Assembly: GCA_937974275.1 (NCBI GenBank)
Contig: CALJIF010000032.1
Span: 1,289 to 65,288 of the forward strand
Length of the DNA stretch: 64,000 bases
Direction: 5' to 3'
Source of the DNA: an uncultured Flavobacteriales bacterium
GTDB taxonomy: Bacteria; Bacteroidota; Bacteroidia; Palsa-965
The position numbers were made by a program, and so were the translations under genes. The notes under the pieces are model-generated. The model searched no databases and had not been told where the DNA came from. It was given only the letters and a program-made list of their open reading frames with translations. Shown here one piece after another: positions 3,314 through 60,349 of this stretch; position 1 is the first letter of the stretch, and each line of letters begins with the position of its first letter.

Positions 3314-3925
3314 GTGTCTGCTGTTCCAAAAATTCTGGCAACGCTTTTTCATCCGCTGTTAATGACTACTTATGGCACAGCTGCCTACGTATTCATTGTT
3401 CGGAGAATCGATTTTCTTGCGGCCGGCAATGTTAATTGGTTAATTCTTGGCCTAATCTTCACCAGCACATTTCTGCTTCCGCTGATTTCTGTTTTTATCA
3501 TGTATCGGTTCGGCATGATAGGGAGCATGGAAATGCACACCGCCAAAGAACGCAACTGGCCACTGATTCAATCCACTGTCATTTATTTGGTCGCGCTTTT
3601 CGCTATGAACACGCGGATTATTCCAACATTCATTCAACTTCTCACATTAACAGCAGCCGTGTGTATGCTCGAGGCATTGATCATTAACCTGTGGTGGAAA
3701 ATCAGTTTACACATGATTGGAATTGGAGGACTTTGTGGAGCGTTAATCATAACAGCACGCAACGATAGCAATGTGCCGCTCGGATTATTAAGTGCTGTAT
3801 TTGTTATCGCCGGCATAATTGGCACTGCCCGCATGATTAGCGGAGCGCACAACATTTTACAAATTACAGCAGGATTTTTATTGGGAATAGTAAGCGCGTC
3901 AGTGCTATTTGCGCTGATAGGATAG
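3314..3925 (+). CDS. polytopic membrane protein, degenerate PAP2-like
   Basis: GTG start 3 nt after rpoN and about 6 hydrophobic helices. The C-terminal ARMISGAHNILQITAG resembles the PAP2 SRx5Hx3D motif but has Q in place of D. Confidence 0.55.
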   Translation: MSAVPKILATLFHPLLMTTYGTAAYVFIVRRIDFLAAGNVNWLILGLIFTSTFLLPLISVFIMYRFGMIGSMEMHTAKERNWPLIQSTVIYLVALFAMNTRIIPTFIQLLTLTAAVCMLEALIINLWWKISLHMIGIGGLCGALIITARNDSNVPLGLLSAVFVIAGIIGTARMISGAHNILQITAGFLLGIVSASVLFALIG

Positions 3926-3927
3926 CG

Positions 3928-4176
3928 CTATTTAGCTTCCAACAAATCTTCTACTTTGTCAAAAGGAACATTAACTACATATTCCTTCCCGTTAGTTAAG
4001 ATCATCTTGGTTCCTTTCCCGAAACGTGCCACGGATTGAATATGTTGCTTTTGAACAAAATGCTCTCCGATTTTAAGGAGAATAATGATCTCGTCCTTGT
4101 GTAAACGTTGTTCCTCTACCACGGTTTTTCTATATTTATAGAGGCAAAAGTAAGCACACTTTGAGGTATTCCACAT
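3928..4176 (-). CDS. small hypothetical protein (start uncertain); C-terminal half resembles the end of a LytTR-type domain
   Basis: The track ORF is 3928..4302, but its first 42 codons overlap the adhesin signal-peptide region, so I shortened it to ATG 4176. The motif FVQKQHIQSV...MILTNGKEYVVNV is only loosely LytTR-like. Confidence 0.3.
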   Translation of the reverse strand: MWNTSKCAYFCLYKYRKTVVEEQRLHKDEIIILLKIGEHFVQKQHIQSVARFGKGTKMILTNGKEYVVNVPFDKVEDLLEAK

Positions 4177-19583: not shown

Positions 19584-19654
19584 TGCCCGATCGTCTAATG
19601 GCAGGACTTCAGATTTTGGTTCTGACTGTGTTGGTTCGAATCCAGCTCGGGCAA
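19584..19654 (+). tRNA. tRNA-Gln (anticodon TTG)
   Basis: Folded by hand: acceptor TGCCCGA/TCGGGCA, D stem GTCT/GGAC, anticodon stem TCAGA/TCTGA with loop TT-TTG-GT, T arm GTTGG-TTCGAAT-CCAGC, discriminator A; 71 nt. Confidence 0.9.
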
Positions 19655-29639: not shown

Positions 29640-30845
29640 TTAGCACTCGCAAATAAAGAGTTTCGAATCTTTGTTCCCTTTGTGTTTGTACAACGACTCG
29701 AATCCTACATCCGCTATAATAAAGTTGACTTTTGGAGAACGATATTCTTCCACCACGTGTTGAATGTCGAGATCACGCAATTCTTCTTTATCACCAAAAC
29801 GAATATACACACGTGTTGTAAAGTTCTTGTCCAGCAATTCGTTTCCTGCAATACGACCACCGTTGAGTGCGCGCAGCTTATTCAACTTCTTGTACGCGTA
29901 TTTGTAATTGTAGGTTAGCGCCGAAACATCCGACAACACTGCGCTTCCCGTCGGATGACTTCCCGCGCCTTTACCGACAAAACTTTGTTTACACGAAAAC
30001 GCTCCTTCTACTTCAATAGCGTTGTATTCGTATAGAATATTAAACAACTCATCTTCCTTACTGATAAAACGCGGCATCACGTACACACGAAATTTGTCTC
30101 CTGATTTCGCTGCACTGCCGATTAATTTGATGCGCAGCCCTTTTTCACGCGCATAGCGAATATCGTCGAACGAAATATTCTGAATGCCCAACGTAAGAAC
30201 ATCCTCCGGCTTCAACACAACTCCAAATGCATGCACAGACAACAAAATAGTTTTGTACATCGTATCGAATCCGGCAACATCCAACCACGGATCTGCTTCT
30301 GCAAAGCCGCTTGCTTGCGCATCTTTCAACACATCCCCATAATCTTTACTCTCCAATTCCATTCGGGTGAGAATGTAATTTGTTGTGCCGTTTAAAATGC
30401 CGCGTAAACTTCCCAGCAACTCATTGTCGTAATATTCCTCCAGTGTACGAATGATGGGAATACTACCTCCTGCAGCACCTTCATATATCAGTGCTTTGCC
30501 GGTTTCTTCCTGAACCTTGAACAGCTCCGCAAAATAGGTGGCCAACATTTTCTTACTGGCGCTTACTACATTCATTCCGTTGTTCATTGCAGTTTTCGCA
30601 ATGGCGTATGCCTCATCCGTATCGGTAATCATTTCAACTACAACATCCAGATCCTGACGGTTCAGAATATCATCTTTGTCATAAGTAATCAACGATGCAT
30701 CAACGCTTCGTTGCTTCTTCGGATCCTTTACTCCAATTCGGGCGATGTTCGCCTGCAACACTTCGGAATGATTTAATACATCGTACAAGCCCTGACCTAC
30801 GCAACCAAAGCCAAATAATGCCACTGAAATTTTCTCGTTGTTCAT
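29640..30845 (-). CDS. hom: homoserine dehydrogenase
   Basis: ATG 30845 gives MNNEKISVALFGFGCVGQG (NAD-binding fold). Typical central motifs are present, such as GILNGTTNYIL. It is the last gene of the sulfur operon. Confidence 0.88.
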   Translation of the reverse strand: MNNEKISVALFGFGCVGQGLYDVLNHSEVLQANIARIGVKDPKKQRSVDASLITYDKDDILNRQDLDVVVEMITDTDEAYAIAKTAMNNGMNVVSASKKMLATYFAELFKVQEETGKALIYEGAAGGSIPIIRTLEEYYDNELLGSLRGILNGTTNYILTRMELESKDYGDVLKDAQASGFAEADPWLDVAGFDTMYKTILLSVHAFGVVLKPEDVLTLGIQNISFDDIRYAREKGLRIKLIGSAAKSGDKFRVYVMPRFISKEDELFNILYEYNAIEVEGAFSCKQSFVGKGAGSHPTGSAVLSDVSALTYNYKYAYKKLNKLRALNGGRIAGNELLDKNFTTRVYIRFGDKEELRDLDIQHVVEEYRSPKVNFIIADVGFESLYKHKGNKDSKLFICEC

Positions 30846-30853
30846 AATTAAAT

Positions 30854-31510
30854 TTATAAGTGCAATCCACATTCTGTTTTCGATCTATTTACCCAACGTC
30901 CTTCACGCCCTCTACCCTTTACCGTACAGTGATAACATCCTACCGAATGGAACCCTTGCTTAATAAGCGGATGTTCCGGAAGTCCGAACTCTTTCATATA
31001 CGCTGCAGCTTGTGATTCCGTTAAATCAACAATCGGATAAAACTTTGTGATCTCTTCGCGGGGATCAAAAATATTCAACTGTTTACGAAACTTGTTCTGA
31101 GCGCCCATCAATCCGGAAATCCAAATTTTATAATTGGACTTGATTTTATCGAGTGGTTCAACTTTGTTAATGGAACAACACAAATCCGGATCCTTGCTCC
31201 ATGTTTGATCTTCACGCGTAAATGTATTTTTCCATTCTTCCGGTTGTAGTGTAATTACATTCAGTTCAAGCAACTTCGTCAAATCATCTTTATACTGAAG
31301 TGTTTCAGAAAAATGATACGTTGTATCCAAAAAATAAACAGGATGTTGAGGAGCAACGCGGTGCAACAAGTGCAGCAGAATCGCAGACGTTGTTCCAAAC
31401 GATGACGTAAACAAAATATCGCGCGCAGAAAACTCAGCGAACAGCTGCTTCATCCTTTGTTCCGGATTCAGAGACAAATAGGCGCGACTTTTCTCCACTG
31501 CAGCGATCAT
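30854..31510 (-). CDS. cysH: adenylyl-sulfate/phosphoadenylyl-sulfate reductase (thioredoxin-dependent); the CC...CxxC motif suggests the Fe-S APS-reductase type
   Basis: The C-terminal catalytic motif ECGLH is present. A Cys pair in DLCCSINK plus CYHC match the 4Fe-4S ligands of APS reductases. Confidence 0.88.
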   Translation of the reverse strand: MIAAVEKSRAYLSLNPEQRMKQLFAEFSARDILFTSSFGTTSAILLHLLHRVAPQHPVYFLDTTYHFSETLQYKDDLTKLLELNVITLQPEEWKNTFTREDQTWSKDPDLCCSINKVEPLDKIKSNYKIWISGLMGAQNKFRKQLNIFDPREEITKFYPIVDLTESQAAAYMKEFGLPEHPLIKQGFHSVGCYHCTVKGRGREGRWVNRSKTECGLHL

Positions 31511-32994
31511 AACCCCAACATGGTTTTTAAACTGATAATAACTACCAGAAATCCTACAAAGATGAGCCCATTACGCACCGAAATTTTAGTTGATAACCAG
31601 ATAGAAAGTGGTGCTGCTGCCATACCTCCAATCATTAATCCGACAATAATTGTCCAGTGTTCGATGCCGATCAAAAAGAAAAATGTGACAGTACTAATCA
31701 CAGCCACAAAAAATTTCGCCGCATGCGCAGAACCGATCGTGTAACGCAAATCGCGACCGCCGGCTAGTAATGTTGATGTTACAATTGGCCCCCAACCGCC
31801 GCCACCAACGGAATCCAGAAATCCACCTACAGCACCCAAAACTCCGATTCGCTTAATTTTTCGTTTCGGCTTCTTCACCATGATAGCCTTTCGGATAATC
31901 AAGATTCCCAAAAACAACGTATAACACGCTACAAAAGGCTTTAGCACCTTGAGATTAGCATTCAGTAATGATGCCGTTAATGCACCGAGCACAGCACCGA
32001 TCGCGCCGGGAATCAGTAATGAACGAAACAGTTTGCTGTTGATGTTTCGATAGCGCCAATACACCAGTGATGAAGTTCCGGTAGTTAAGATTTCGGAAGC
32101 ATGCATACTGGCACTTGCGACTGCAGGACTAACACCAAACGACATTAAAAATGTGGTTACACTCACTCCGTAGGCCATTCCTAATGCGCCATCGATCATC
32201 TGTGCAACAAACCCACCCAATATCCACCATAAGATCGATTGATCAATTTGCGCCGTTGCAATGGTGATTCCGTCCCAAATTTCGACTAATGGTATAAATG
32301 AAAAAAGTAAATGTCCGATCACCATCAAGCTCAGCACTGACAAAACATACAGTACAATTTTGTATTTCCGTTTTATCGCATGCTTGGGTGCAGCTTCTTC
32401 CACCAAAACTTTAGTGGCTTCGTTCAACACGCGTACTTTTTCTTTGAAGTCACCACGCAGATGATCGCGGAGTTGATTGAGCTGCTGAGCTGAAGTAATC
32501 GTTTCGTCGGGAATGTTTTCAGACAACACCTCTTTCAATCGCTTCGCCAAAGTAGGTGAAGTACCATTAGTACTGATTCCTATTTTTAACGGGCCCTTGC
32601 TCACCACTGCGCCTAAATAAAAATCACAATAATCGGGACGATCGGCGGCATTCAATAACAAACCGCGGGCATGAACATCATCACGAATTAACGCCGTTGT
32701 AGCGATATCATTCACACAGGAAATAACGATATGTTTTCCCTCCAAATCTTCAGGTGTGTAAGGTCTTTCCTCCAGAAAAACATTTCTATGCAAACGTGCT
32801 ATGCTGCCCACTTCTTCAATCACTTCCAACGCCACAATGGTAATTGTTACCGCCGGACTCTGTTGTAAGATATTATTCAACTTTTCTAATGCCACTGCAC
32901 CACCGCCAATAATCAACACGTGCAGGTGTTCCAATTTTAAAAAAACCGGAAACAACGTATTGTTCATTTTATCATTTGTGGTAGGTGTGCTCAT
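31507..32994 (-). CDS. fusion protein: siroheme synthase N-terminal module (precorrin-2 dehydrogenase/ferrochelatase, SirC/CysG-N) + TauE/SafE (TSUP) anion permease
   Basis: Residues ~15-200 read FPVFLKLEHLHVLIIGGGAVALEKL...GISTNGTSPTLAKRLK. Residues ~230-495 contain 7-8 TM helices with the DUF81 signature GVLGAVGGFLDSVGGGGWGPI. Confidence 0.85.
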   Translation of the reverse strand: MSTPTTNDKMNNTLFPVFLKLEHLHVLIIGGGAVALEKLNNILQQSPAVTITIVALEVIEEVGSIARLHRNVFLEERPYTPEDLEGKHIVISCVNDIATTALIRDDVHARGLLLNAADRPDYCDFYLGAVVSKGPLKIGISTNGTSPTLAKRLKEVLSENIPDETITSAQQLNQLRDHLRGDFKEKVRVLNEATKVLVEEAAPKHAIKRKYKIVLYVLSVLSLMVIGHLLFSFIPLVEIWDGITIATAQIDQSILWWILGGFVAQMIDGALGMAYGVSVTTFLMSFGVSPAVASASMHASEILTTGTSSLVYWRYRNINSKLFRSLLIPGAIGAVLGALTASLLNANLKVLKPFVACYTLFLGILIIRKAIMVKKPKRKIKRIGVLGAVGGFLDSVGGGGWGPIVTSTLLAGGRDLRYTIGSAHAAKFFVAVISTVTFFFLIGIEHWTIIVGLMIGGMAAAPLSIWLSTKISVRNGLIFVGFLVVIISLKTMLGL

Positions 32995-33692
32995 AGCGCG
33001 AGTTGGTGCTGGATAACAAATCGTATAATTCCGTGAGACTCAAATTCCGTTTCGGAACGACGCAACAACAGGTGCATTCCGGTAACAGTAACTCCCCACT
33101 GCTCATTGAACTTATATCCAAAACCACCAAATATTCTGTTTTGATCAAGGACAGCAAAGTTAATACGAGTAGCTGCAATAATGAGCTCGTTGCCCAGTAT
33201 TAAATAGGTGTTGCGTTGTTCGGTAATATAGCGATGCCATTCCGTTCGAAAGCGCGCGCGAACAGTAGCGAATTTGTAGTTCGTTTCCGGTGTTGCTATG
33301 AATCGTTGTTCAACACGCAAACGCTGTATGAACGTGTTTTTTGTTGATACCTGCTTAGCACCCCATTCTTGCCACAAGCGCCATTCACGGCGAAATGCTC
33401 CGTTATTGGGATTCGGGTACAAGTGAAAACGTGCGTAACCAATCATTACGGTATGATCATTTTTGAACTTGCGCTGAATTCCCTGGCGCCAAAGTATATT
33501 GAACCAGTCTCCATCGGTTAGTTCCAATCGGGCTTGCGCATCATTGAACAACTCCCACTTTTCGTTCAATACCAGGCGCTGCTGAAAACCGCCCCAAACA
33601 AGATAACGCGGAGTGATAGTGCGCTGCGCCAAAACCATCGCCGGCAACATCAGCATCCACGTTATCAATAGGATTATTGTAGTTCTTTTCAC
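32991..33692 (-). CDS. DUF2490-like predicted outer-membrane protein
   Basis: Signal peptide MKRTTIILLITWMLMLPAMVLAQ and aromatic/Arg-rich alternating sequence. It overlaps the next gene by 4 nt. The family assignment is from memory and tentative. Confidence 0.65.
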   Translation of the reverse strand: MKRTTIILLITWMLMLPAMVLAQRTITPRYLVWGGFQQRLVLNEKWELFNDAQARLELTDGDWFNILWRQGIQRKFKNDHTVMIGYARFHLYPNPNNGAFRREWRLWQEWGAKQVSTKNTFIQRLRVEQRFIATPETNYKFATVRARFRTEWHRYITEQRNTYLILGNELIIAATRINFAVLDQNRIFGGFGYKFNEQWGVTVTGMHLLLRRSETEFESHGIIRFVIQHQLAL

Positions 33693-33698
33693 GGTGAA

Positions 33699-34472
33699 TT
33701 AATTCAACAAATGATTTTCCAAAGCCAGCGTGTAAAGTGCCTGTGGATGTTTTCGTACCACTTCACCTACAACAATAACAGCAGGTGTTTTAATTCCTTC
33801 TTCTTGTACAACGCGCACAATAGTATCTACAGAACCGATGGCAACATTCTCAGTGGGTAACGATCCATTCTGAATTACGGCTACCGGTAAAGCACCCTTG
33901 CCGTATTGCTCATACACTTTTGTGATTTCCCGCAGTGAACTTAGGCCCATTAAAATGATCACCGTTGCTTCCGATTGCGCAGCCAAATGAATGTCATTAG
34001 GAATTTCTCCCGCAGAATTTCGTCCCGTCAGCACCCAAAAGCTTTCACTAATTCCACGATGCGTCACAGGAATACCTTGTAAAGCAGGAACACCTAGCGA
34101 ACTCGAAATGCCGGGCACAACTGCCGTTTCAATATTAAAGCGATCAGCAAATTCTAATTCTTCTGCTCCGCGTCCAAACACAAAAGGATCGCCACCTTTC
34201 AAACGAACCACGTGCCCGTGTGAAAAGGCATAATCAACGATGAGTGAGTTGATCTGATCTTGCGTTAGATGATGCGCACCTTTGCGTTTGCCAACAAATA
34301 TTTTTATGGCTTGATACGGTGCATACTTTAATAATTCGGGATTCACCAAAGCATCGTATAGAATTACATCTGCTTCACCCAACGCGTTAATTGCTTTAAT
34401 GGTTATTAATTCAGGATCTCCGGGACCAGCGCCGATAATAGTAAGTTTCGGTTGTTTATAATACGTATTCAT
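33699..34472 (-). CDS. cobA: uroporphyrinogen-III C-methyltransferase
   Basis: IIGAGPGDPELITIKA, VVRLKGGDPFVFGRG and VVPGISS are classic SUMT motifs. Confidence 0.92.
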   Translation of the reverse strand: MNTYYKQPKLTIIGAGPGDPELITIKAINALGEADVILYDALVNPELLKYAPYQAIKIFVGKRKGAHHLTQDQINSLIVDYAFSHGHVVRLKGGDPFVFGRGAEELEFADRFNIETAVVPGISSSLGVPALQGIPVTHRGISESFWVLTGRNSAGEIPNDIHLAAQSEATVIILMGLSSLREITKVYEQYGKGALPVAVIQNGSLPTENVAIGSVDTIVRVVQEEGIKTPAVIVVGEVVRKHPQALYTLALENHLLN

Positions 34473-34505
34473 GATTTCAAATTTTAGAAGTGATAAATTG
34501 TTGTT

Positions 34506-34574
34506 TTAAAAGGATGATTTGCAACAACAACATCGCATTCGACTATTCCGGAATAACTGAAGTCTTGATTTCAT
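34506..34574 (-). CDS. candidate mini-ORF MKSRLQLFRNSRMRCCCCKSSF between sir and cobA
   Basis: The ATG lies 4 nt after the sir stop. It has four consecutive Cys codons (TGT TGT TGT TGC, 34532-34521) and a stop 33 nt before the cobA ATG. It is below the ORF-track length cut-off. Confidence 0.35.
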   Translation of the reverse strand: MKSRLQLFRNSRMRCCCCKSSF

Positions 34575-34578
34575 AGTC

Positions 34579-36669
34579 TTAGTTGGTATGAATATTTTTC
34601 CTGTTCGCTAATCGCTTCTGAATAGTAGTATGTACAAACTCACGCGACTCCTTAAGGTACTTTTGCGTAAAGGATTGTGTGGGCTGTTGCTCTTTAATTT
34701 GCAACACTGCTTGTGCGAAGGCGTTGTCGGGGAATCCGTAAGCCACACCAAAGTGCGTTTGAAATTCGCTAATGACGGAAAACTGACTATTCACTTGTAT
34801 TCCATCATCTAACAAAACAGCTTTTGCTGCATGAATAATGGCATTGTAAGCATGGTAAGCAGCATCAGCAAAACGCGATTTATTGAACTGTTCTTCCGAA
34901 GCTCGAATTGCATCTTCGGCTTCATGTAACAATACAGTTACTAAGTCGATCTTCACTCCGGCGCATTCACCCACTCCCACAGCCAAAGCAAATTTTTTAT
35001 CGGAATTCCAATCGATGAGCAGATCATCCGAGATATCGTCGGTTTCCCCAAATGCTTTCAGCAATTGATAGAAATACATTTTACCCTGACGAAGAAAATA
35101 TTCGCGGTACGATTCGTCGGTTGCATTATGTTCGAAATCGTTAATTAAAACACGCAACACTGCAGGCGCGCGCTTGCTGGGGAACTTGATAATTTTTTCT
35201 GCTGCAACACCTTTTCCACCTCCAAGCACCAATTGTAACGCAGGAGCTACAGCACGTCCAATCTTCAGGGAACTTCCGTGAAAACCGATATCTGCCAATG
35301 CGTGCTGACCGCAACTATTCATGCACCCGCTGATTTTTATCGTTAAATCGCGTCTTCCGATGAAGTGCGGGAACTCATGTGCAACAACTTCTTCAAGCAC
35401 CGCAGCAACTCCGGTACTGTTGGAAATACCGAGATTGCACGTATCTGTACCCGGGCAAGATGTAATATCTCCTAATGCACTTCCTCCGGGCAAATGCAAA
35501 CCAAGAACTTGCAACGCCTGATACAAAGCGGGAACAGCCGATTCAGGAACAAAACGCAACAAAATACTTTGCTGAGGAGTTATGCGGCTATCTGATGACC
35601 GTGCATAGTGATCGATAACATCAGCAAGTGCTGCAGCGGTTGAGGAAGCTAAATCACCACGAGGAATGCGCACATGCACAGCCACATATCCCGGTTGTTT
35701 CTGAGCGATTACGCTGCTGCGTTTCCAAACATCGAATGCTTCAGAATTACTTTTCTTAAATGTGGTGAAGATACTTTTCGGTTCGTCTATGGCATTTTCA
35801 AAATCAGGAATGTTCACGTGTTGTGCTGCAAGTCCTTGTTTTTCTTCTTGCACCAAACGCAGCAATTCTTCGAGTCCGATTTTATGGAGTAAGTATTTCA
35901 ATCGTGCTTTATTTCTGTTGTTGCGCTCACCATGTCGGTCGAACACACGGAGCAAGGCTTCCGTGAACGGCACAATTTCACTTTCGGGAAGAAATTCAGA
36001 TGCGGTTTGCGCCGGAAATGGCTGTGCGCCGAGCCCACCGCCGATGACAACTTTGAATCCACGTTGCATGTTGCCGGTGACAATTTCGACACGCGGAATA
36101 AATCCGATATCGTGCATGAATGTAAATGCCGTGTCGGCTTCGGACGAGGAAAACGCAATTTTAATTTTCCGCCCCATGTCTTGACCAACAGGATTGCGCA
36201 GAAAATATCTGAAAAGAAAATCAGCGTACGGCGTTACATCAAATGGTTCACCGGAATCAATGCCTGCTTCCGGAGAAGCTGTGATATTACGAACTGTGTT
36301 ACCGCATGCTTCGCGTAATGTTAAATCGTCTTGCTCCAATTCCGCCCACAACGCAGGTGTATCATCGAGACTCACGAAATGAAATTGCACATCCTGACGT
36401 GTAGTTAAGTGTAAATTACCCGTCGCGTATTTATCGGATAATTTTGCCAATTGTCGCAATTGATTGGTGTTAAAACGCCCATACGGAATTTTTATGCGCA
36501 CCATTTGTACGCCTTGTTGGCGTTGTCCGTACACACCGCGTGCAAGACGCAGACTTCTGAATTTTTCGGGGTCAATTGCTCCGGAATGAAACTGCAGGAT
36601 TTTATGCTGCAGGTCGAGGATATCTTGTTCTACTATCGGATTTTCGAGTTCGGTTCTAAAGCTTTGCAT
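34579..36669 (-). CDS. sir: assimilatory sulfite reductase hemoprotein (ferredoxin-type NiR/SiR fold) with an extra C-terminal helical domain
   Basis: Siroheme/4Fe-4S ligands SCPGTDTC (Cx5C) and GCMNSC (Cx3C), with duplicated NiR/SiR ferredoxin-like halves. At 696 aa it is ~130-150 aa longer than the core. Confidence 0.9.
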   Translation of the reverse strand: MQSFRTELENPIVEQDILDLQHKILQFHSGAIDPEKFRSLRLARGVYGQRQQGVQMVRIKIPYGRFNTNQLRQLAKLSDKYATGNLHLTTRQDVQFHFVSLDDTPALWAELEQDDLTLREACGNTVRNITASPEAGIDSGEPFDVTPYADFLFRYFLRNPVGQDMGRKIKIAFSSSEADTAFTFMHDIGFIPRVEIVTGNMQRGFKVVIGGGLGAQPFPAQTASEFLPESEIVPFTEALLRVFDRHGERNNRNKARLKYLLHKIGLEELLRLVQEEKQGLAAQHVNIPDFENAIDEPKSIFTTFKKSNSEAFDVWKRSSVIAQKQPGYVAVHVRIPRGDLASSTAAALADVIDHYARSSDSRITPQQSILLRFVPESAVPALYQALQVLGLHLPGGSALGDITSCPGTDTCNLGISNSTGVAAVLEEVVAHEFPHFIGRRDLTIKISGCMNSCGQHALADIGFHGSSLKIGRAVAPALQLVLGGGKGVAAEKIIKFPSKRAPAVLRVLINDFEHNATDESYREYFLRQGKMYFYQLLKAFGETDDISDDLLIDWNSDKKFALAVGVGECAGVKIDLVTVLLHEAEDAIRASEEQFNKSRFADAAYHAYNAIIHAAKAVLLDDGIQVNSQFSVISEFQTHFGVAYGFPDNAFAQAVLQIKEQQPTQSFTQKYLKESREFVHTTIQKRLANRKNIHTN

Positions 36670-36725
36670 AAGTTTTATTGTAAGTTGTTTCGGATATATT
36701 TTTTTGAAAATCCGTGAGAACCGAC

Positions 36726-36760
36726 AATAAAAAAGCCCTCACGGAAATCCGGAGGGCTTC
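36726..36760 (-). terminator. intrinsic terminator / attenuator 2, ~57 nt upstream of the sir ATG
   Basis: Minus strand: AAGCCCTCCGG-ATTT-CCG(t)GAGGGCTT, 11 bp with one bulge, followed by TTTTTTATT. Confidence 0.7.
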
Positions 36761-36777
36761 GCTCAACACACCAACAA

Positions 36778-36888
36778 TCAACTGCACCATGTAAGCATAT
36801 ACCTTCCGGGCTTGCTGTTTGCACAGCAGCACATACACATGCACATACACATGTACGAGGAAAGGAAGGTTAATGCGGTGCGTTTCAT
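36778..36888 (-). CDS. candidate leader peptide 2: MKRTALTFLSSYMCMCMCMCCCANSKPGRYMLTWCS
   Basis: Translated by hand from the minus strand. Ten consecutive codons (36852-36823) are only ATG or TGT/TGC. The stop lies 17 nt before terminator 2, and an A/U-rich stretch precedes ATG 36888. Confidence 0.55.
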   Translation of the reverse strand: MKRTALTFLSSYMCMCMCMCCCANSKPGRYMLTWCS

Positions 36889-36907
36889 GTTGAAGTTCGG
36901 TTAAATT

Positions 36908-36944
36908 AATAAAAAAAGGCTTTCCAAAATCGGGAAAGCCTTTT
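36908..36944 (-). terminator. intrinsic terminator / attenuator 1
   Basis: Minus strand: AAAAGGCTTTCC-cgatttt-GGAAAGCCTTTT (12 bp) followed by TTTATTAATTT. The T tract is much weaker on the plus strand. Confidence 0.7.
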
Positions 36945-36961
36945 ATATAAATGCTATTCCC
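36932..36961 (-). promoter_or_regulatory. candidate antiterminator helix of attenuator 1
   Basis: GGGAA(T)AGC (36961-36953) pairs with GCTTTCCC (36939-36932), which is the 5' arm of terminator 1. That gives 8 bp, one bulge and a 13-nt loop. It starts 5 nt after the mini-ORF stop. Confidence 0.35.
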
Positions 36962-36965
36962 ACTG

Positions 36966-37016
36966 TCATGGATTCATGCAGCAGTTCATCATCATATTTA
37001 AGTTATTGTTCATCAT
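36966..37016 (-). CDS. candidate leader peptide 1: MMNNNLNMMMNCCMNP
   Basis: Translated by hand from the minus strand. Of 16 codons, 6 are Met, 2 Cys and 6 Asn. The stop lies 21 nt before terminator 1. Confidence 0.45.
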   Translation of the reverse strand: MMNNNLNMMMNCCMNP

Positions 37017-37057
37017 TGTAATGTGGCGCAAAGATATAGCGGAAATATTTTATGATG

Positions 37058-37065
37058 CAAATTTA
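37058..37065 (-). promoter_or_regulatory. candidate -7 promoter box for the sulfur-operon leader
   Basis: TAAATTTG on the minus strand matches TAnnTTTG and lies ~42 nt upstream of mini-ORF 1. No clean -33 TTTG sits at the expected spacing. Confidence 0.3.
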
Positions 37066-37150
37066 TTTTTGTTATCGCGTTAAAACCGCTTCGTTGCTGT
37101 GTTGTACGTCACTTTTAAAATAACCGTTCGATAAATTTATGCCGACACAT

Positions 37151-37642
37151 TTAGTTGGACGTACTTTTCGAGCGCGTCGCATTCAAATACTCCCGGGCAA
37201 CTTCCAGCAGCTCGCTCGACGTACAATTCGTATCCGCGGTATTTACCTTTCTTTCGTAATAGGAACGTGAGCCGTCATTGGCCCACTCTTGTACCACCAA
37301 ATACTTTTTAATGCCCCGCAAACCGGATCCCGGTGCCTCGGCATGCGAAAGATCTTCTTCTTCTAACGTGATATCCCGAATCAGTGTCCAGGGAATAGTT
37401 CTTTTATATCTCCGCAAGTAAACCCCTTCTTCACTAAAAACAATTTCATGTTTATTCCGTAATCGATTTACGACAATAACGATCAACACCAGTGCACTCG
37501 AAATCAGCCAAAACCACCAAAATTCGGGATTGCGCACTCGTTCAAAAATCAGCGCATAAGCACTGCCCACACACATGAATAACATGGGCGCACCAATAAC
37601 TACATCCATCGTAGAACTTCGTTTGATGTAGCGCGGCTTCAT
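37151..37642 (-). CDS. hypothetical membrane protein (two N-terminal TM helices + soluble C-terminal domain)
   Basis: ORF of 163 aa with two hydrophobic helices. I recognised no family. Confidence 0.65.
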   Translation of the reverse strand: MKPRYIKRSSTMDVVIGAPMLFMCVGSAYALIFERVRNPEFWWFWLISSALVLIVIVVNRLRNKHEIVFSEEGVYLRRYKRTIPWTLIRDITLEEEDLSHAEAPGSGLRGIKKYLVVQEWANDGSRSYYERKVNTADTNCTSSELLEVAREYLNATRSKSTSN

Positions 37643-37659
37643 GGGTTAAGAAAGGGGAA

Positions 37660-38067
37660 TTATCTGCGGTGTTCCTGCACGTATCCGTTGATATAATCAA
37701 CGATCGTTTTCGTATCCGTTCCCGGAGGAAACAACATGCCCACGCCGAGTTCGTTGAGCTTTTTCATATCGGCATCAGGAATGATTCCGCCGCCTGTCAA
37801 CAATACATCGTTCAAGCCTTTCTCTTTCATCAAGGTCATGATTTTCGGAAATACCGTCATGTGCGCACCGGATAAAATGCTGACACCGATTGCATCAACG
37901 TCTTCCTGCAATGCTGCATTGACAACCATTTCAGGGGTTTGACGTAATCCGGTATAAATTACTTCCATGCCTGCATCGCGCAGAAAAGAAGCGATTACTT
38001 TGGCGCCACGATCGTGACCATCCAAACCAACTTTTGCAATTAAAACTCGAACAGGACGTTGTTGCAT
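37660..38067 (-). CDS. stand-alone cobalamin (B12)-binding domain protein, methylmalonyl-CoA mutase small-subunit type
   Basis: [19 protein letters not shown] contains the DxHxxG B12 lower-ligand motif, and the C-terminus has the GGGIIP motif. 135 aa. Confidence 0.88.
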
Positions 38068-38094: not shown

Positions 38095-41000
38095 TTATTG
38101 TGAATCACCTTTACGAACCGGAATGGAAACATAAAATGTTGTTCCCGAACCTTTCGTGGTTTCAAAACGGATACGACCATTCACACTCTCCACAATACTC
38201 TTGACCATAGCTAGTCCAAGTCCCATTCCGCCCGATTTAGTGGTGAAATTCGGCACAAATATTTTATCGATCACTTCGTCACTGATGCCGGTGCCGTTGT
38301 CTTTTACGGTTACCACAAAATGCTGTCCTTCACGGCTCAACTTCACCTCAACAATTCCATCCTGCTCTTCCGGTATAGCCTGAATGGCGTTGCGAATCAA
38401 ATTATTAAATACACGCATCAACTGCTCATAATCGCCTTCCACATCAGCATGATCCAACATTCCGTGATCGTATGAAATTTTGATACGCTCTTCTGTTTCC
38501 TGAAATAAACTCACCACATTATCCAGCAATTCATGAAGATCCATTTCTTCAATTTGCGGCTTCGGCATTTTTGCGAAATCGGAGAATGCTGTTGCAATAG
38601 AAGAAAGCGTATCAATCTGCTCAATCATCGTTTTCGTCAAACGCTCCACCTTCTGATCGAGATCCGGAGCTTTATCGCGGTACGCACGTTCCAGCAGTTG
38701 CAAACTGAGTCGTATTGGTGTAAGGGGATTTTTAATTTCATGTGCTACCTGCTTCGCCATTTCGCGCCATGCACTTTCACGCTCGCTCTGTGCCAACAAT
38801 TCGGCACTATGCGCCAATTCAGAAATCATTCTGTTATACTCACGCACCAAACTTCCGATTTCATCGTTGGTTTCCCAGTTGATCGGGTCGTTTTTCTGAC
38901 CCAATGTAACAGCGCGCATCTTGTCCTGAATTAAACGCAAAGGTTTCGTCAGGTAATTCGAAATAAATATCGCTGCTATAACCGATAATGAGAACAGCAG
39001 CACGTACACATTAATTAATGCCACAAGGAAAGAAGATATTTCTTTCTCCAAATCGTTCTGCTTCGCGAAATACGGCAAACTCAAATAAGCAATTAATTCA
39101 CCCGATTTATTCTTAACCGGTAAATACGCCGACAAATAAGCCAGATTACCCACGTTCTCGTCATGTACAAACTCCGAACGTTTATTTATATGCAATTGCA
39201 AATACGCTTCCGGATTCATCTTGCGTGAAACCAAACCTTCATCAAACACTTTCCCTCTGGACGTGGCAAACAAATTACCTTCCAGATCATATAGGTTGAT
39301 ATCCGTAAAGAACACATTCGAAAACTTACGTAAGAGATAGGTGGTGTATTCCTTGTATGGCGCTGTCAATTTGTTATCCTCAATTTTGGATTCAATTTCC
39401 AACGATACGGAATGTGCCTTCTCACTTATAATTTCGGAGTTTTTAGTTTGGTATTGCTGTTGGATGTAGTAAATGGATCCACTACCGAATAAGGTTAACG
39501 ATGCCAGAACGATCAACACCAACACCAATTGAATACGATACTTAAATGTTAACTGACTGAATGCATTACCCGCAACAATAACCTGACGCAGGAACAACGC
39601 CAACATCAACAGCAAACTATATAATGTAAATATGTACGAAAATCCTGTAGTGATGCTCAACCAACCTTCCTGAGGCTTGCTGAGTACAACCGCTGTCTCG
39701 TTGTCCGGAGAATATACTAAATGCTCGTAGTGCTCTTGCACAACAAATTCATTCTTTCGTGCTGCAGCCAGATATTGTTCGGGCGATAAACTGAATTGAA
39801 ACTTCCCGGCATGATTTAACAATACGCCATTCTTATATTTTGCATACGAATAATTCAGCAATCGCTGGTTCACTGTCAATTCACGATCGAGCAACAATTC
39901 CGGGAAACCCACTTCTTCGTTCATCAACTTCGAATCCAATTCCAGAATCAACGTTCCTTGTCCTAAAAACTTCTCTCTACCCGGCCATTGTAATACCAAC
40001 TTCGCGACATACGAAATGCGACCGTCACCTTTTGTCCTGAAATAAAAATGTTCTGTTTGTGTCGGTTCGCATTGACGATGCACAATCTCTTCCATCAGCG
40101 TGAAGTTGTCGGAATACGTGGCAGCATGGCGCAATAAAGGCACGCACATCGTATCGAAAAATGCCACTTTCACATCATACTTTTCCCAATAACCGCTGAA
40201 GTATTGTTGCACCACACGTTTCTCAAACGCATTCAGATCCGCTTCCGGACCCTGAGATAATTTAATCAGCACGGTATCGTACATCAATTTATCGCGCAAC
40301 TCGATAAAGAAATGTTCTGCTATCGGATCTTGTTCAGCAGCCAGTTTTTCAGCCAATAATTTTCGCGAGTCGTGTTCTTTGTAACGCGATTGTTTCCCGA
40401 TCATGTGTGTGGTGTAGAACGAAAATAAAAACACCAGTAAAACAATCAGCGAAAAAGGATAACGGCTTTCTTCCGTATCTGTAGGTCGTTGAAATAACAC
40501 GAAAAGAATGGCAAAAGGCCAATACACCGTAATCATATCTACGTTGCCCTGCAGTGCGCATACCACGGTGAATAAAGCAGCAGCCAGAATAAACAATGCG
40601 AGTTGTTCAACAAACTTCAACTGCATGCGTTTAATTTGAAAAACTGCGTGATCTGCGAGTAAGAAAAACGTTGCAACAAATAATGCCAGCAACAACAGAC
40701 CCAGATAGCTGAAAACGGATAAATCGAAAATGTTATTGACATTAAATGAGATGTCGGAGTTCTGCACCAGATCTTGAATCATTTGATTGATCAGCCAACC
40801 ACCGGCGACAGGAACCGCCATCATGAAAAGTGCCAACAAATAGCGTGATGCACGTTGTTGAGGAAAATTGATGACGAGTGATTTAGGATGACGTAGCACG
40901 TAAATCACACCGAACAACAACAGCAAGGCATTCAGGAAGAAGTCGCCCAGATTGGAGTTCCAAAACGATTCTGCATCGCCGTAATGCAACGGACTAAACA

Positions 41001-59414: not shown

Positions 59415-60349
59415 GCGATGTTGTATCCCGTGAAATAAGTCGCCCAATAGTGGTAGTTGATGCCGGTGCCCGGAATGGGTTCCAATTAATTCCGCAACTG
59501 CATCGTCACTTGAGGTTGTTTGCATTCGAGCCGGATCCGAGATCTTATGCAACTCTCGTTGAACGTTACCGCAATTCGTCACAATTCCATTCCGCAAAAT
59601 GTTTCCCCGTTGCACTTGCTGATGAATTAGGCACTGCCACCTTATACAGCACGGCTCATCCAAGTATGAGTTCACTTATGCAAGCAGACAAAAAACTATT
59701 TGCATCCTATACCCAACGAATGGGTGATACAAAATCGTGGTCCGAAGGTTTTGAAGTTGTTGCACAACATGAAGTACAACAAACGACGTTGGAGCATTTG
59801 TGCGAAGAACAACAACTGCAACACATCGATTTTTTAAAACTCGACACTCAAGGCAGCGAATTGAAAATTCTAAAAGGAGCACAGGATTTACTCGACCGGA
59901 AAAAAATCGGCGTAGTGTTTACTGAATTCTGCATGGTGAACTATTATGAGAACCAGTCTTGCTTCAGTGAATTGGACCAATGGATGAAAGCAAGAGGTTA
60001 TCAACTTATTGACATCCGCACATATCCTGAAATTGCGAATCGCATGCATCATAGTGTATCCGGCAAAATCACAGAACAACCACGATTCGGAATGGTGGGT
60101 GATGCTGTTTACATCCCGAACAACGTTGACAACTACTATCATCCCGAAACTATTGCACTGCTTCTTGCTGCATTAGGATACTACAGTCACAGCGAAACAA
60201 TTTTCAAGACGCGTAATTGGAATGAACAAAAAATAGAGTCGTTATTTTGCCAACTGGATAAAAAAAGCGGCCGTGAAAAATGGAAGCAGTTCCTGCGCCG
60301 CTGGACACCACCAGGAATACATTATTGGTACAGCAAATTGCGTTCATGA
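59411..60349 (+). CDS. FkbM family methyltransferase
   Basis: VVDAGARNG, FAFEPDPRSY and FLKLDTQGSELKILKGA. It overlaps both neighbours by 4 nt. Confidence 0.85.
   Translation: MSDVVSREISRPIVVVDAGARNGFQLIPQLHRHLRLFAFEPDPRSYATLVERYRNSSQFHSAKCFPVALADELGTATLYSTAHPSMSSLMQADKKLFASYTQRMGDTKSWSEGFEVVAQHEVQQTTLEHLCEEQQLQHIDFLKLDTQGSELKILKGAQDLLDRKKIGVVFTEFCMVNYYENQSCFSELDQWMKARGYQLIDIRTYPEIANRMHHSVSGKITEQPRFGMVGDAVYIPNNVDNYYHPETIALLLAALGYYSHSETIFKTRNWNEQKIESLFCQLDKKSGREKWKQFLRRWTPPGIHYWYSKLRS

Follow-up and report, generated by a model that had tools for sequence, protein, structure and literature searches.

A 64,000-nt stretch of contig CALJIF010000032.1 from an uncultured Flavobacteriales bacterium, analysed here as a whole and called the window, carries a 481-nt leader (37150 to 36670, minus strand) in front of sir, the gene for an assimilatory sulfite reductase. 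This leader probably carries, on a single transcript, a series of two ribosome-mediated transcription attenuators that are each multivalent for cysteine and methionine. Its elements follow one another in the order promoter, first short open reading frame (mini-ORF 1 or ORF1), terminator 1, mini-ORF 2 (ORF2), terminator 2 and sir, and all genes in that part of the window lie on the minus strand. The order had been proposed in a first-pass annotation made from the letters alone, and every part was found on the minus strand where that annotation had placed it, with an A/U-rich spacer of about 25 nt between terminator 1 and ORF2. Its proposal of two attenuator units in series is supported by a full anatomy, a single promoter and 11 divergent loci with the same arrangement; the division of labour that it suggested, with the first module weighted to methionine and the second to cysteine, was not borne out, as described below.

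The window locus (WIN) was compared with 80 genome and 80 metagenome loci encoding relatives of its sulfite reductase (Sir), which are referred to by L-numbers. The relatives all belong to Bacteroidota and share 51-59% identity with the window protein, with the exception of L081 at 97%. Mini-ORFs were searched for as an ATG start followed by a run of Met and Cys codons, no more than 400 nt 5' of sir and in spacers of at least 150 nt. A module was called where such a mini-ORF was followed within 70 nt by a terminator with a folding free energy (dG) of -9 or lower. The null expectation for leader ORFs was obtained from 5000 dinucleotide shuffles of the 481-nt leader.

Both modules of the window combine a Met- and Cys-containing leader ORF with an intrinsic terminator (Table 1). 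The regulatory codons of ORF1 are Met8-10, Cys12-13 and Met14 (36995-36975), and the Met/Cys run of ORF2 occupies codons 13-22 (36852-36823). The measured distance from stop codon to terminator stem was 21 nt in module 1 and 17 nt in module 2, in agreement with the 17-21 nt given earlier. Compared with shuffled sequences, module 1 folded with z = -4.1 and module 2 with z = -5.7. Terminator 2 was missed by a simple hairpin scan owing to its 1-nt bulge, and was recovered in the minimum free energy (MFE) fold and in a second scan. The leader ORFs have a very short or absent 5' untranslated region (5'UTR) and no Shine-Dalgarno sequence. Of 93 loci, 69 have a -7 box of the form TAnnTTTG no more than 70 nt upstream of their first leader ORF, where shuffles predict 5. 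In 21 loci, mostly from Pedobacter (e.g. L028), this box ends just 4 nt before the ATG, a gap that suggests a leaderless mRNA for the leader ORF.

Table 1. Features of the sir leader and of the reading frames that follow it, in window coordinates.
Feature	Coordinates	Strand	Basis and remarks
-33-like element TTTG of a Bacteroidetes-type promoter	37058..37061	-	Read from the sequence; 21 nt upstream of the -7 box
-7 box TATCTTTG (consensus TAnnTTTG)	37029..37036	-	Sequence; ends 12 nt before the ORF1 ATG
Leader ORF1, MMNNNLNMMMNCCMNP then stop, short-tail type	36966..37016	-	Sequence, ORF list, shuffle test
Candidate 1:2 helix of module 1: Cys-Cys-Met codons (CUGCUGCAUG) paired to CAUGACAGUGG, a segment containing the stop codon	36960..36984	-	MFE and centroid folds
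Module 1 putative antiterminator: UGGGAAUAGC with GGCUUUCCCG (5' arm of terminator 1)	36931..36962	-	Masked folds
Intrinsic terminator 1	36907..36944, stem 36944-36914	-	12 bp, 7-nt loop, dG -15.4 kcal/mol, U7
Leader ORF2, MKRTALTFLSSYMCMCMCMCCCANSKPGRYMLTWCS then stop (…YMCMCMCMCCC…), long-tail type	36778..36888	-	Sequence, ORF list, shuffle test
Module 2 putative antiterminator segment CCCGGAAGGUA (codons 27-30)	36800..36810	-	Complementary to terminator 2 arm GCCCUCCGG
Intrinsic terminator 2	36727..36760, stem 36760-36732	-	1-nt bulge, dG -19.4 kcal/mol, U6
sir, assimilatory sulfite reductase haemoprotein	34579..36669 (ATG 36669)	-	Pfam NIR_SIR + NIR_SIR_ferr
Third mini-ORF, MKSRLQLFRNSRMRCCCCKSSF then stop	34506..34574	-	Start 4 nt past the sir stop; end 33 nt short of the cobA ATG

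The two leader ORFs are far beyond what base composition would yield. At least one ATG-initiated ORF with a comparable Met/Cys window arose in 0.06% of the 5000 leader shuffles, and two arose in none of them (0/5000). Cysteine accounts for 1.5% and methionine for 2.2% of residues in the long ORFs of the window; in 75 distinct leader peptides, cysteine reaches 14.4% and non-initiator methionine 12.3%. A mini-ORF with a Met/Cys run preceded sir in 47 of 67 genome loci; the corresponding counts were 4 for the reverse strand and 2.5 for shuffled sequence. A mini-ORF followed by a terminator was found in 46 genome and 47 metagenome loci. These 93 loci make up roughly 70% of all that had a usable spacer. 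Representative leader peptides are MNFNFIPKQLTAKQMMCCCCKTQ in Pedobacter, MGNTVSVRMNMRMCCWSVSTD in Chitinophaga and …MMYCCMQGDN in Mucilaginibacter. Where an aldo-keto-reductase gene precedes sir, the mini-ORF or mini-ORFs were found upstream of that gene instead; the element therefore belongs to the operon's 5' end and is not tied to sir itself. The window contains further Cys-clustered mini-ORFs (e.g. 59707-59826 and 40905-40931); these are out of frame or antisense within long genes and were set aside as background.

The near-identical locus L081 allowed the rate of change in the leader to be set against that in sir. The two sir genes differ at 75 of 2091 nt, and at 55 of 697 third-codon positions (7.9%), compared with 6 of 385 nt in the leader. 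No change at all was found over 308 nt that begin at ORF1 codon 2 and end 26 nt beyond the terminator 2 stem, where about 24 would be expected at the third-position rate (P ~1e-11). The first ATG of ORF1 is lost in L081 and the frame is retained from the second ATG. Similarity between the two loci begins just upstream of the -33 element, and the DNA further upstream is unrelated. On this comparison, the leader is evidently under purifying selection.

We next consider the alternative pairings on which an attenuator depends. A column-wise covariation test on 11 aligned module 1 sequences failed, with the stem columns out of register. Because the MAFFT alignment of these 11 sequences was misregistered in the stem columns, we relied on two alignment-free tests, the stability of the antiterminator duplex relative to shuffles (z) and the exchange of segments and terminator arms between modules. 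Almost all modules carry a segment, 2-35 nt 3' of their last Cys codon, that is complementary to the terminator's 5' arm. The duplex had a mean z of -1.7 over 51 modules, 23 of which fell below -1.64. In the swap test on 30 de-duplicated modules, native segments and arms paired about 2 kcal/mol better than exchanged ones after double centring (permutation p<1e-4). Compensatory pairs are seen in L083 (GGAAGAG/CTCTTCC) and L086 (GGAAAGCC/GGCTTTCC), both in the segment equivalent to that of module 1, in L045 (CGAAAGGG/CCCTTTTG) and L010 (ACAGAAG/CTTCTGT), and in the closest genome relative, L001, where CGGGAGG/CCTCCCG (CGGGAGG/CCUCCCG in the RNA) takes the place of CCGGAAGG/CCCTCCGG in module 2 of the window. 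Across the whole family, this co-variation argues for an antiterminator that a stalled ribosome would leave exposed.

For module 1 of the window, folding with a masked ribosome reproduces the textbook attenuation scheme. In the unmasked fold, the Cys-Cys-Met codons base-pair with the stop-codon region, and the resulting hairpin is a candidate anti-antiterminator or pause helix. With a ribosome masked at Met10, Cys12 or Cys13 and the 3' arm of the terminator not yet made, the pairing of the segment after the ORF with the 5' arm of terminator 1 forms; a ribosome masked on the stop codon covers that segment, and the antiterminator is blocked. In module 2, the antiterminator duplex is stronger in its own right (-12.7 kcal/mol, z -2.4, segment CCCGGAAGG), and in the MFE fold the segment has an alternative partner in ACCUUCC (36870-36864), a 1:2 pairing. 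The antiterminator mechanism of module 2 is predicted from the comparison of loci and not from its fold.

Two modules, each with its own terminator, were found in 11 distinct loci: the window (with L081), L006, L010, L014, L015, L027, L045 (with L124), L083, L084, L086 and L093. The survey for co-occurring modules that the first-pass annotation had called for places the tandem sensor architecture, two complete units in one leader, in loci beyond the window. Sir identity among five compared tandem loci was 54-66%, and these proteins were no closer to one another than to those of single-module loci. The order of the modules is constant, with a short-tail type first and a long-tail type second. 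In the short-tail design, the run ends 1-3 codons before the stop (…CCMMCI-stop, …MMCCMMCA-stop) and the antiterminator lies 4-6 nt after it; short-tail ORFs homologous to ORF1 of the window, ending in ..CCMMC[I/A/N], occur in the 10 other tandem loci. In the long-tail design, about 6-15 codons follow the run and contain the antiterminator. A -7 box precedes ORF1 in five inspected tandem loci, and no full match to it was found between terminator 1 and ORF2 in these five, as would be expected if both modules were carried on one transcript. L001 has the same promoter and a homologue of module 2, recognizable at the nucleotide level, as its sole module, and lacks module 1. Between its terminator and sir (~3870-3985), the L001 spacer is filled with repeated inverted GTCAGGAG…CTCCTGAC hairpins, which look like small repeat elements inserted into the leader.

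The signals read by the two modules appear to be the same. Met and Cys codons are present in both modules of the window and of every tandem homologue, and runs that mix the two occur in either position (CGCCCMMC and CCMMC in module 1, MCMCCCCM in module 2). Because both modules mix Met and Cys, we read the arrangement as repeated sensing of the same two signals and not as a two-input AND gate; no consistent partition into Met first and Cys second is seen, and the AND-type response that had been suggested earlier is not supported. The genes downstream offer a reason for sensing both amino acids. sir is the first structural gene of an operon sir-cobA-DUF2490-sirC/TauE-cysH-hom that extends down to 29640 (Pfam matches after sir: TP_methylase, DUF2490, NAD_binding_7 + Sirohm_synth_M + TauE, PAPS_reduct and Homoserine_dh), with a gene order that is kept in related loci. 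This operon makes sulfide and siroheme and includes hom; sulfide can feed cysteine and homocysteine synthesis alike. It is therefore an operon that serves both Cys and Met synthesis, and the presence of hom provides the rationale for dual Cys/Met sensing.

A natural substitution at the 5' end of some leaders is informative on the role of the Met codons. Rfam searches identified a SAM-I riboswitch (S-adenosylmethionine, SAM; RF00162, 60-75 bits) in every Pontibacter and Botryobacter locus and one metagenome locus (L002, L004, L005, L007, L008, L009 at 3498-3603, L013, L018 and L100 at 1338-1438), and in no other; its 3' end lies about 8 nt before the leader ORF. The leader ORF that follows it is poly-Cys (…CCCCCCSC). 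Peptides after SAM-I have 6-8 Cys and 0-1 Met near the run, compared with means of 3.0 Cys and 2.5 Met elsewhere (Mann-Whitney p ~5e-6 and 2e-6). This pattern fits the idea that Met codons would report methionine status where no SAM sensor is present, and the SAM-I loci would be mixed series of riboswitch and leader peptide. Several of them have a second Cys-containing mini-ORF further downstream.

The loci also differ in a possible protein regulator. By tblastn, 40 of 82 single-module loci have a gene for an Rrf2 regulator immediately upstream of the leader, against 0 of 13 two-module loci, counts that are confounded by phylogeny and may reflect a trade-off between a repressor and a second attenuator; the window, likewise, has no such gene immediately upstream of sir. 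Where present, the regulator has 146-149 aa, is encoded on the same strand and matches Pfam PF02082 (E 7e-36); examples are L016, L020, L028, L059 and many Sphingobacteriales. In L045 (3870-3941) and L124 (510-581), a tRNA-Cys(GCA) gene lies between terminator 2 and sir, and is thus apparently inside the unit that would be controlled by stalling at Cys codons.

We propose that the leader works as follows. RNA polymerase would initiate at the promoter near 37029, and a ribosome would begin to translate ORF1. With Cys-tRNA and Met-tRNA well charged, this ribosome would reach the ORF1 stop codon and cover the segment 3' of it, and terminator 1 would form. A stall on the Met/Cys codons would leave the segment free to pair with the 5' arm of terminator 1 as an antiterminator, and transcription would go on. 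The same decision would be repeated at ORF2 and terminator 2, where the antiterminator segment lies within the ORF2 tail. Since only transcripts that pass both terminators reach sir-cobA-sirC/TauE-cysH-hom, the two read-through probabilities would multiply, with a lower basal level and a steeper response to a shortage of sulfur amino acids as the outcome. Stalling at the Cys and Met codons, its effect on termination and the multiplicative logic are inferred, and read-through is predicted to rise when the cognate aminoacyl-tRNA is limiting.

Several points weigh against this proposal. The terminating activity of the hairpins and the translation of the mini-ORFs are predictions, and we know of no studies of transcription-translation coupling in Bacteroidota. 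The module 1 antiterminator is weak when taken alone (duplex -6.5 kcal/mol, z -0.7). In equilibrium folds of module 2 with a single masked ribosome, the antiterminator was not selected, and long-range helices between the 5' and 3' parts of ORF2 dominated; the model therefore requires co-transcriptional kinetics or trailing ribosomes. AUG beside UGY yields the self-complementary motifs CAUG and UGCA, so that some of the Met enrichment could be there for RNA structure instead of sensing. Many of the loci are related, and the counts given above overstate the number of independent events; the SAM-I association, being confined to a single clade, counts as one.

A third element of the operon was examined alongside the leader. 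The first-pass annotation had pointed to a CCCC-containing mini-ORF between sir and cobA. This ORF is real and has counterparts in 9 other loci, but it proved longer than described, and no terminator was found 3' of it (34506-34574). A poly-Cys ORF starting 0-4 nt after the sir stop codon was present in 10 of 159 loci, that is, in the window and 9 others (e.g. L044, L055, L066, L082, L085, L112, L120 and L151), and several of these ORFs share the motif IKF[DE]SCCCCMIMI. As it lacks a terminator and is translationally coupled to sir, we regard the third mini-ORF as an element of another kind. The UGU/UGC run of the post-sir ORF can pair, in the window and in some of the other loci, with an ACAACAA stretch before the cobA start, a pairing reminiscent of translational attenuation in mycobacteria; in the window, the Cys codons (UGUUGUUGUUGC) can pair with AACAACAA upstream of cobA with z -2.0. 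Sequestration of the cobA start region by these codons was not significant overall, with z ranging from -2.0 to +1.3 over 9 loci. The third mini-ORF may act in translational or polarity control of cobA and the distal genes.

A broader reading, which we hold to be possible although rather doubtful, joins these elements into a three-tier, purely translation-based sulfur sensor made up of two attenuators of different design and the third poly-Cys ORF. The short-tail and long-tail modules would then differ in stalling thresholds or kinetics and would together replace a repressor protein, and the more distal genes (siroheme, cysH and hom) would be tuned by the third ORF, itself coupled to sir. The Met codons would be true sensors of Met-tRNA charging, evolutionarily interchangeable with a SAM riboswitch, and a further possibility is a trans-acting role for the ~110-nt RNA that terminator 1 releases.

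It is unlikely that only module 2 works and that module 1 is a decaying duplicate, a terminator for upstream transcription or the source of a small terminated RNA with its own function. The organization of L001, the low stability of the module 1 antiterminator and the sufficiency of a single module in most loci would all agree with such a reading. However, module 1 is 100% conserved in L081 against 7.9% change at sir third-codon positions, and short-tail modules with their own co-varying antiterminator and terminator come first in 10 other divergent loci. Moreover, the promoter lies upstream of ORF1 and not of ORF2, and in L006, terminator 1 cannot serve the upstream gene because that gene is divergent.

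Less probable still is control that does not depend on translation, by a small-molecule riboswitch or by an RNA- or DNA-binding protein such as Rrf2, with the mini-ORFs being incidental. The Rrf2 genes next to so many single-module leaders and the SAM-I riboswitch within the Pontibacter leader speak for such control. In the window itself, the sole Rfam match at the gathering threshold was a tRNA at 19584-19654, and a permissive search of the leader returned no match near a gathering score (best, RcsR1 at 26 bits against 60). Rfam searches of 25 homologous loci yielded nothing beyond SAM-I in the Pontibacter clade and tRNA-Cys. Two-module loci are also those in which an adjacent Rrf2 gene was never found. 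What is conserved across orders is the ATG, the in-frame Met/Cys run and the position of the stop codon relative to the antiterminator, and not an aptamer-like fold.

That the mini-ORFs encode functional Cys-rich peptides, for metal binding, for redox chemistry or as precursors of peptides that are made on the ribosome and modified after translation (RiPPs), and are not sensors, we consider very improbable. The peptides are conserved as a Cys-rich class, and a terminated leader RNA and its peptide could in principle act in trans, as peTrpL and rnTrpL have been shown to do in Sinorhizobium; yet the peptides share no sequence outside the Met/Cys run, vary from 14 to 49 aa in length and are always accompanied by a terminator and antiterminator at the 5' end of a sulfur operon. 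A chance coincidence of ORFs and hairpins in an AT-rich spacer, for which the out-of-frame Cys-clustered ORFs within genes elsewhere in the window might speak, is refuted by the shuffle statistics, the conservation, the co-variation and the purifying selection, and has a negligible probability.

The genes around the leader were also examined. At its C-terminus, the window Sir is extended by about 130 aa, and a HEPN domain is matched in this extension (residues 579-634, E 3.5e-7); its homologues share its overall length of ~680-710 aa. At 31507-32994, a TauE/SafE sulfite-exporter-like membrane domain is joined in one 495-aa ORF to the N-terminal domains of siroheme synthase (NAD_binding_7 + Sirohm_synth_M); this fusion was matched over ~1.4-1.5 kb in several inspected loci (e.g. 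L001, L027, L045 and L055), and over the first ~600 nt only in others. Upstream of the leader, the 163-aa gene has no significant Pfam match, and the other upstream gene encodes a protein with a B12-binding domain. The 163-aa gene was rejected as a part of the unit, being absent from all relatives, and the DNA of L081 is unrelated upstream of the promoter. Over window positions 29640-38067, the genes that flank the operon core are far closer to those of L001 than the core is: amino-acid identity is 92% for the B12-binding protein and 87% for hom, compared with 59% for Sir, 69% for CobA, 52% for SirC/TauE and 65% for CysH. Together with the unrelated DNA upstream of the promoter in L081 (Sir 97%), these identities suggest that relatives have swapped the sulfur cassette by recombination.

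If the proposal of serial Cys/Met attenuators holds, the leader element would be the main cis-regulator of sulfate/sulfite assimilation in Bacteroidota, a Cys-keyed attenuator based on terminators. Literature searches returned no described control of sulfate/sulfite assimilation in this phylum and no paper on a Cys/Met leader in it; a survey of attenuators across phyla, Lopatovskaya et al. 2010 (Mol Biol 44:128), may contain a prior prediction. The conserved two-module form would offer a natural system in which the benefit of serial attenuators for dynamic range, steepness and noise filtering can be addressed, with natural variants at hand for comparison: one module with an adjacent Rrf2 gene, two modules without one, and a SAM riboswitch followed by a Met-poor poly-Cys ORF. 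In addition, the combination of a Met/Cys-run ORF and a terminator provides a simple annotation signature for sulfur regulons of Bacteroidota and for their unannotated mini-ORFs. The mechanism itself is known. What appears to be new, judging from the comparisons made here, is the amino-acid pair Cys and Met, the phylum and pathway, and the conserved two-module architecture; we know of no earlier leader peptide in which methionine codons serve as sensors.

Classical leader-peptide attenuators control the trp, his, phe and leu operons, and multivalent ones the thr (Thr and Ile) and ilv operons of Proteobacteria. The window leader is like them in having short ORFs with codons for the end products, intrinsic terminators, predicted antiterminators that depend on ribosome position, and multivalent sensing. 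It is unlike them in using Cys and Met codons, in its target, sulfate/sulfite assimilation, in placing two units in series, and in its Bacteroidetes-type promoter, very short or absent 5'UTR and lack of a Shine-Dalgarno sequence. Within the phylum, his and ilv leaders have been predicted in Flavobacterium psychrophilum (PMC9723704).

For cysteine, Canestrari et al. (2020, bioRxiv 10.1101/834739) stated that no attenuation by a cysteine upstream ORF had been described before their work on the mycobacterial polycysteine leaderless short ORFs such as Ms5788A, which had been predicted by Seliverstov et al. 2005 (PMC1262725). The window shares with Ms5788A the consecutive Cys codons in a 5' mini-ORF of sulfur or cysteine genes, taken to sense the charging of Cys-tRNA, and in many Sphingobacteriales the leader ORF is seemingly leaderless as well. 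Ms5788A acts on translation, its Cys tract pairing with the Shine-Dalgarno sequence of the next gene, and has no intrinsic terminator (bioRxiv 10.1101/834739); in contrast, both modules of the window leader have canonical terminators, predicted antiterminators and Met codons. Of the window's elements, the third mini-ORF (34574-34506) alone bears a likeness to the mycobacterial design, and a weak one. Upstream of cysS in Rhodobacterales, the uORFC-8-2 motif has been predicted to be a ribosome-mediated attenuator and has a terminator and tandem Cys codons (PMC8632094); it differs from the window leader in controlling cysteinyl-tRNA synthetase, in having two Cys codons and no Met, in being a single module and in belonging to another phylum.

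The sole described precedent for tandem ORF-based attenuators is the mgtCBR leader of Salmonella, in which two short ORFs, mgtM and mgtP, each stand in their own attenuation unit and sense ATP and Pro-tRNA in an independent and additive manner, called a 'singular example' by the authors (Lee & Groisman 2012, PMC3641672). In the window leader, by comparison, both modules have the same Cys and Met codons and a canonical intrinsic terminator each, in an arrangement that is kept across orders. Tandem riboswitches, with two complete thiamine pyrophosphate or SAM units or with SAM and adenosylcobalamin units on metE, give a steeper or a two-input response. The window leader is like them in arranging two full units of sensor and terminator serially, and unlike them in that its sensors would be translating ribosomes and not aptamers. 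The nearest mixed case between the two is the SAM-I riboswitch followed by a poly-Cys leader ORF in Pontibacter.

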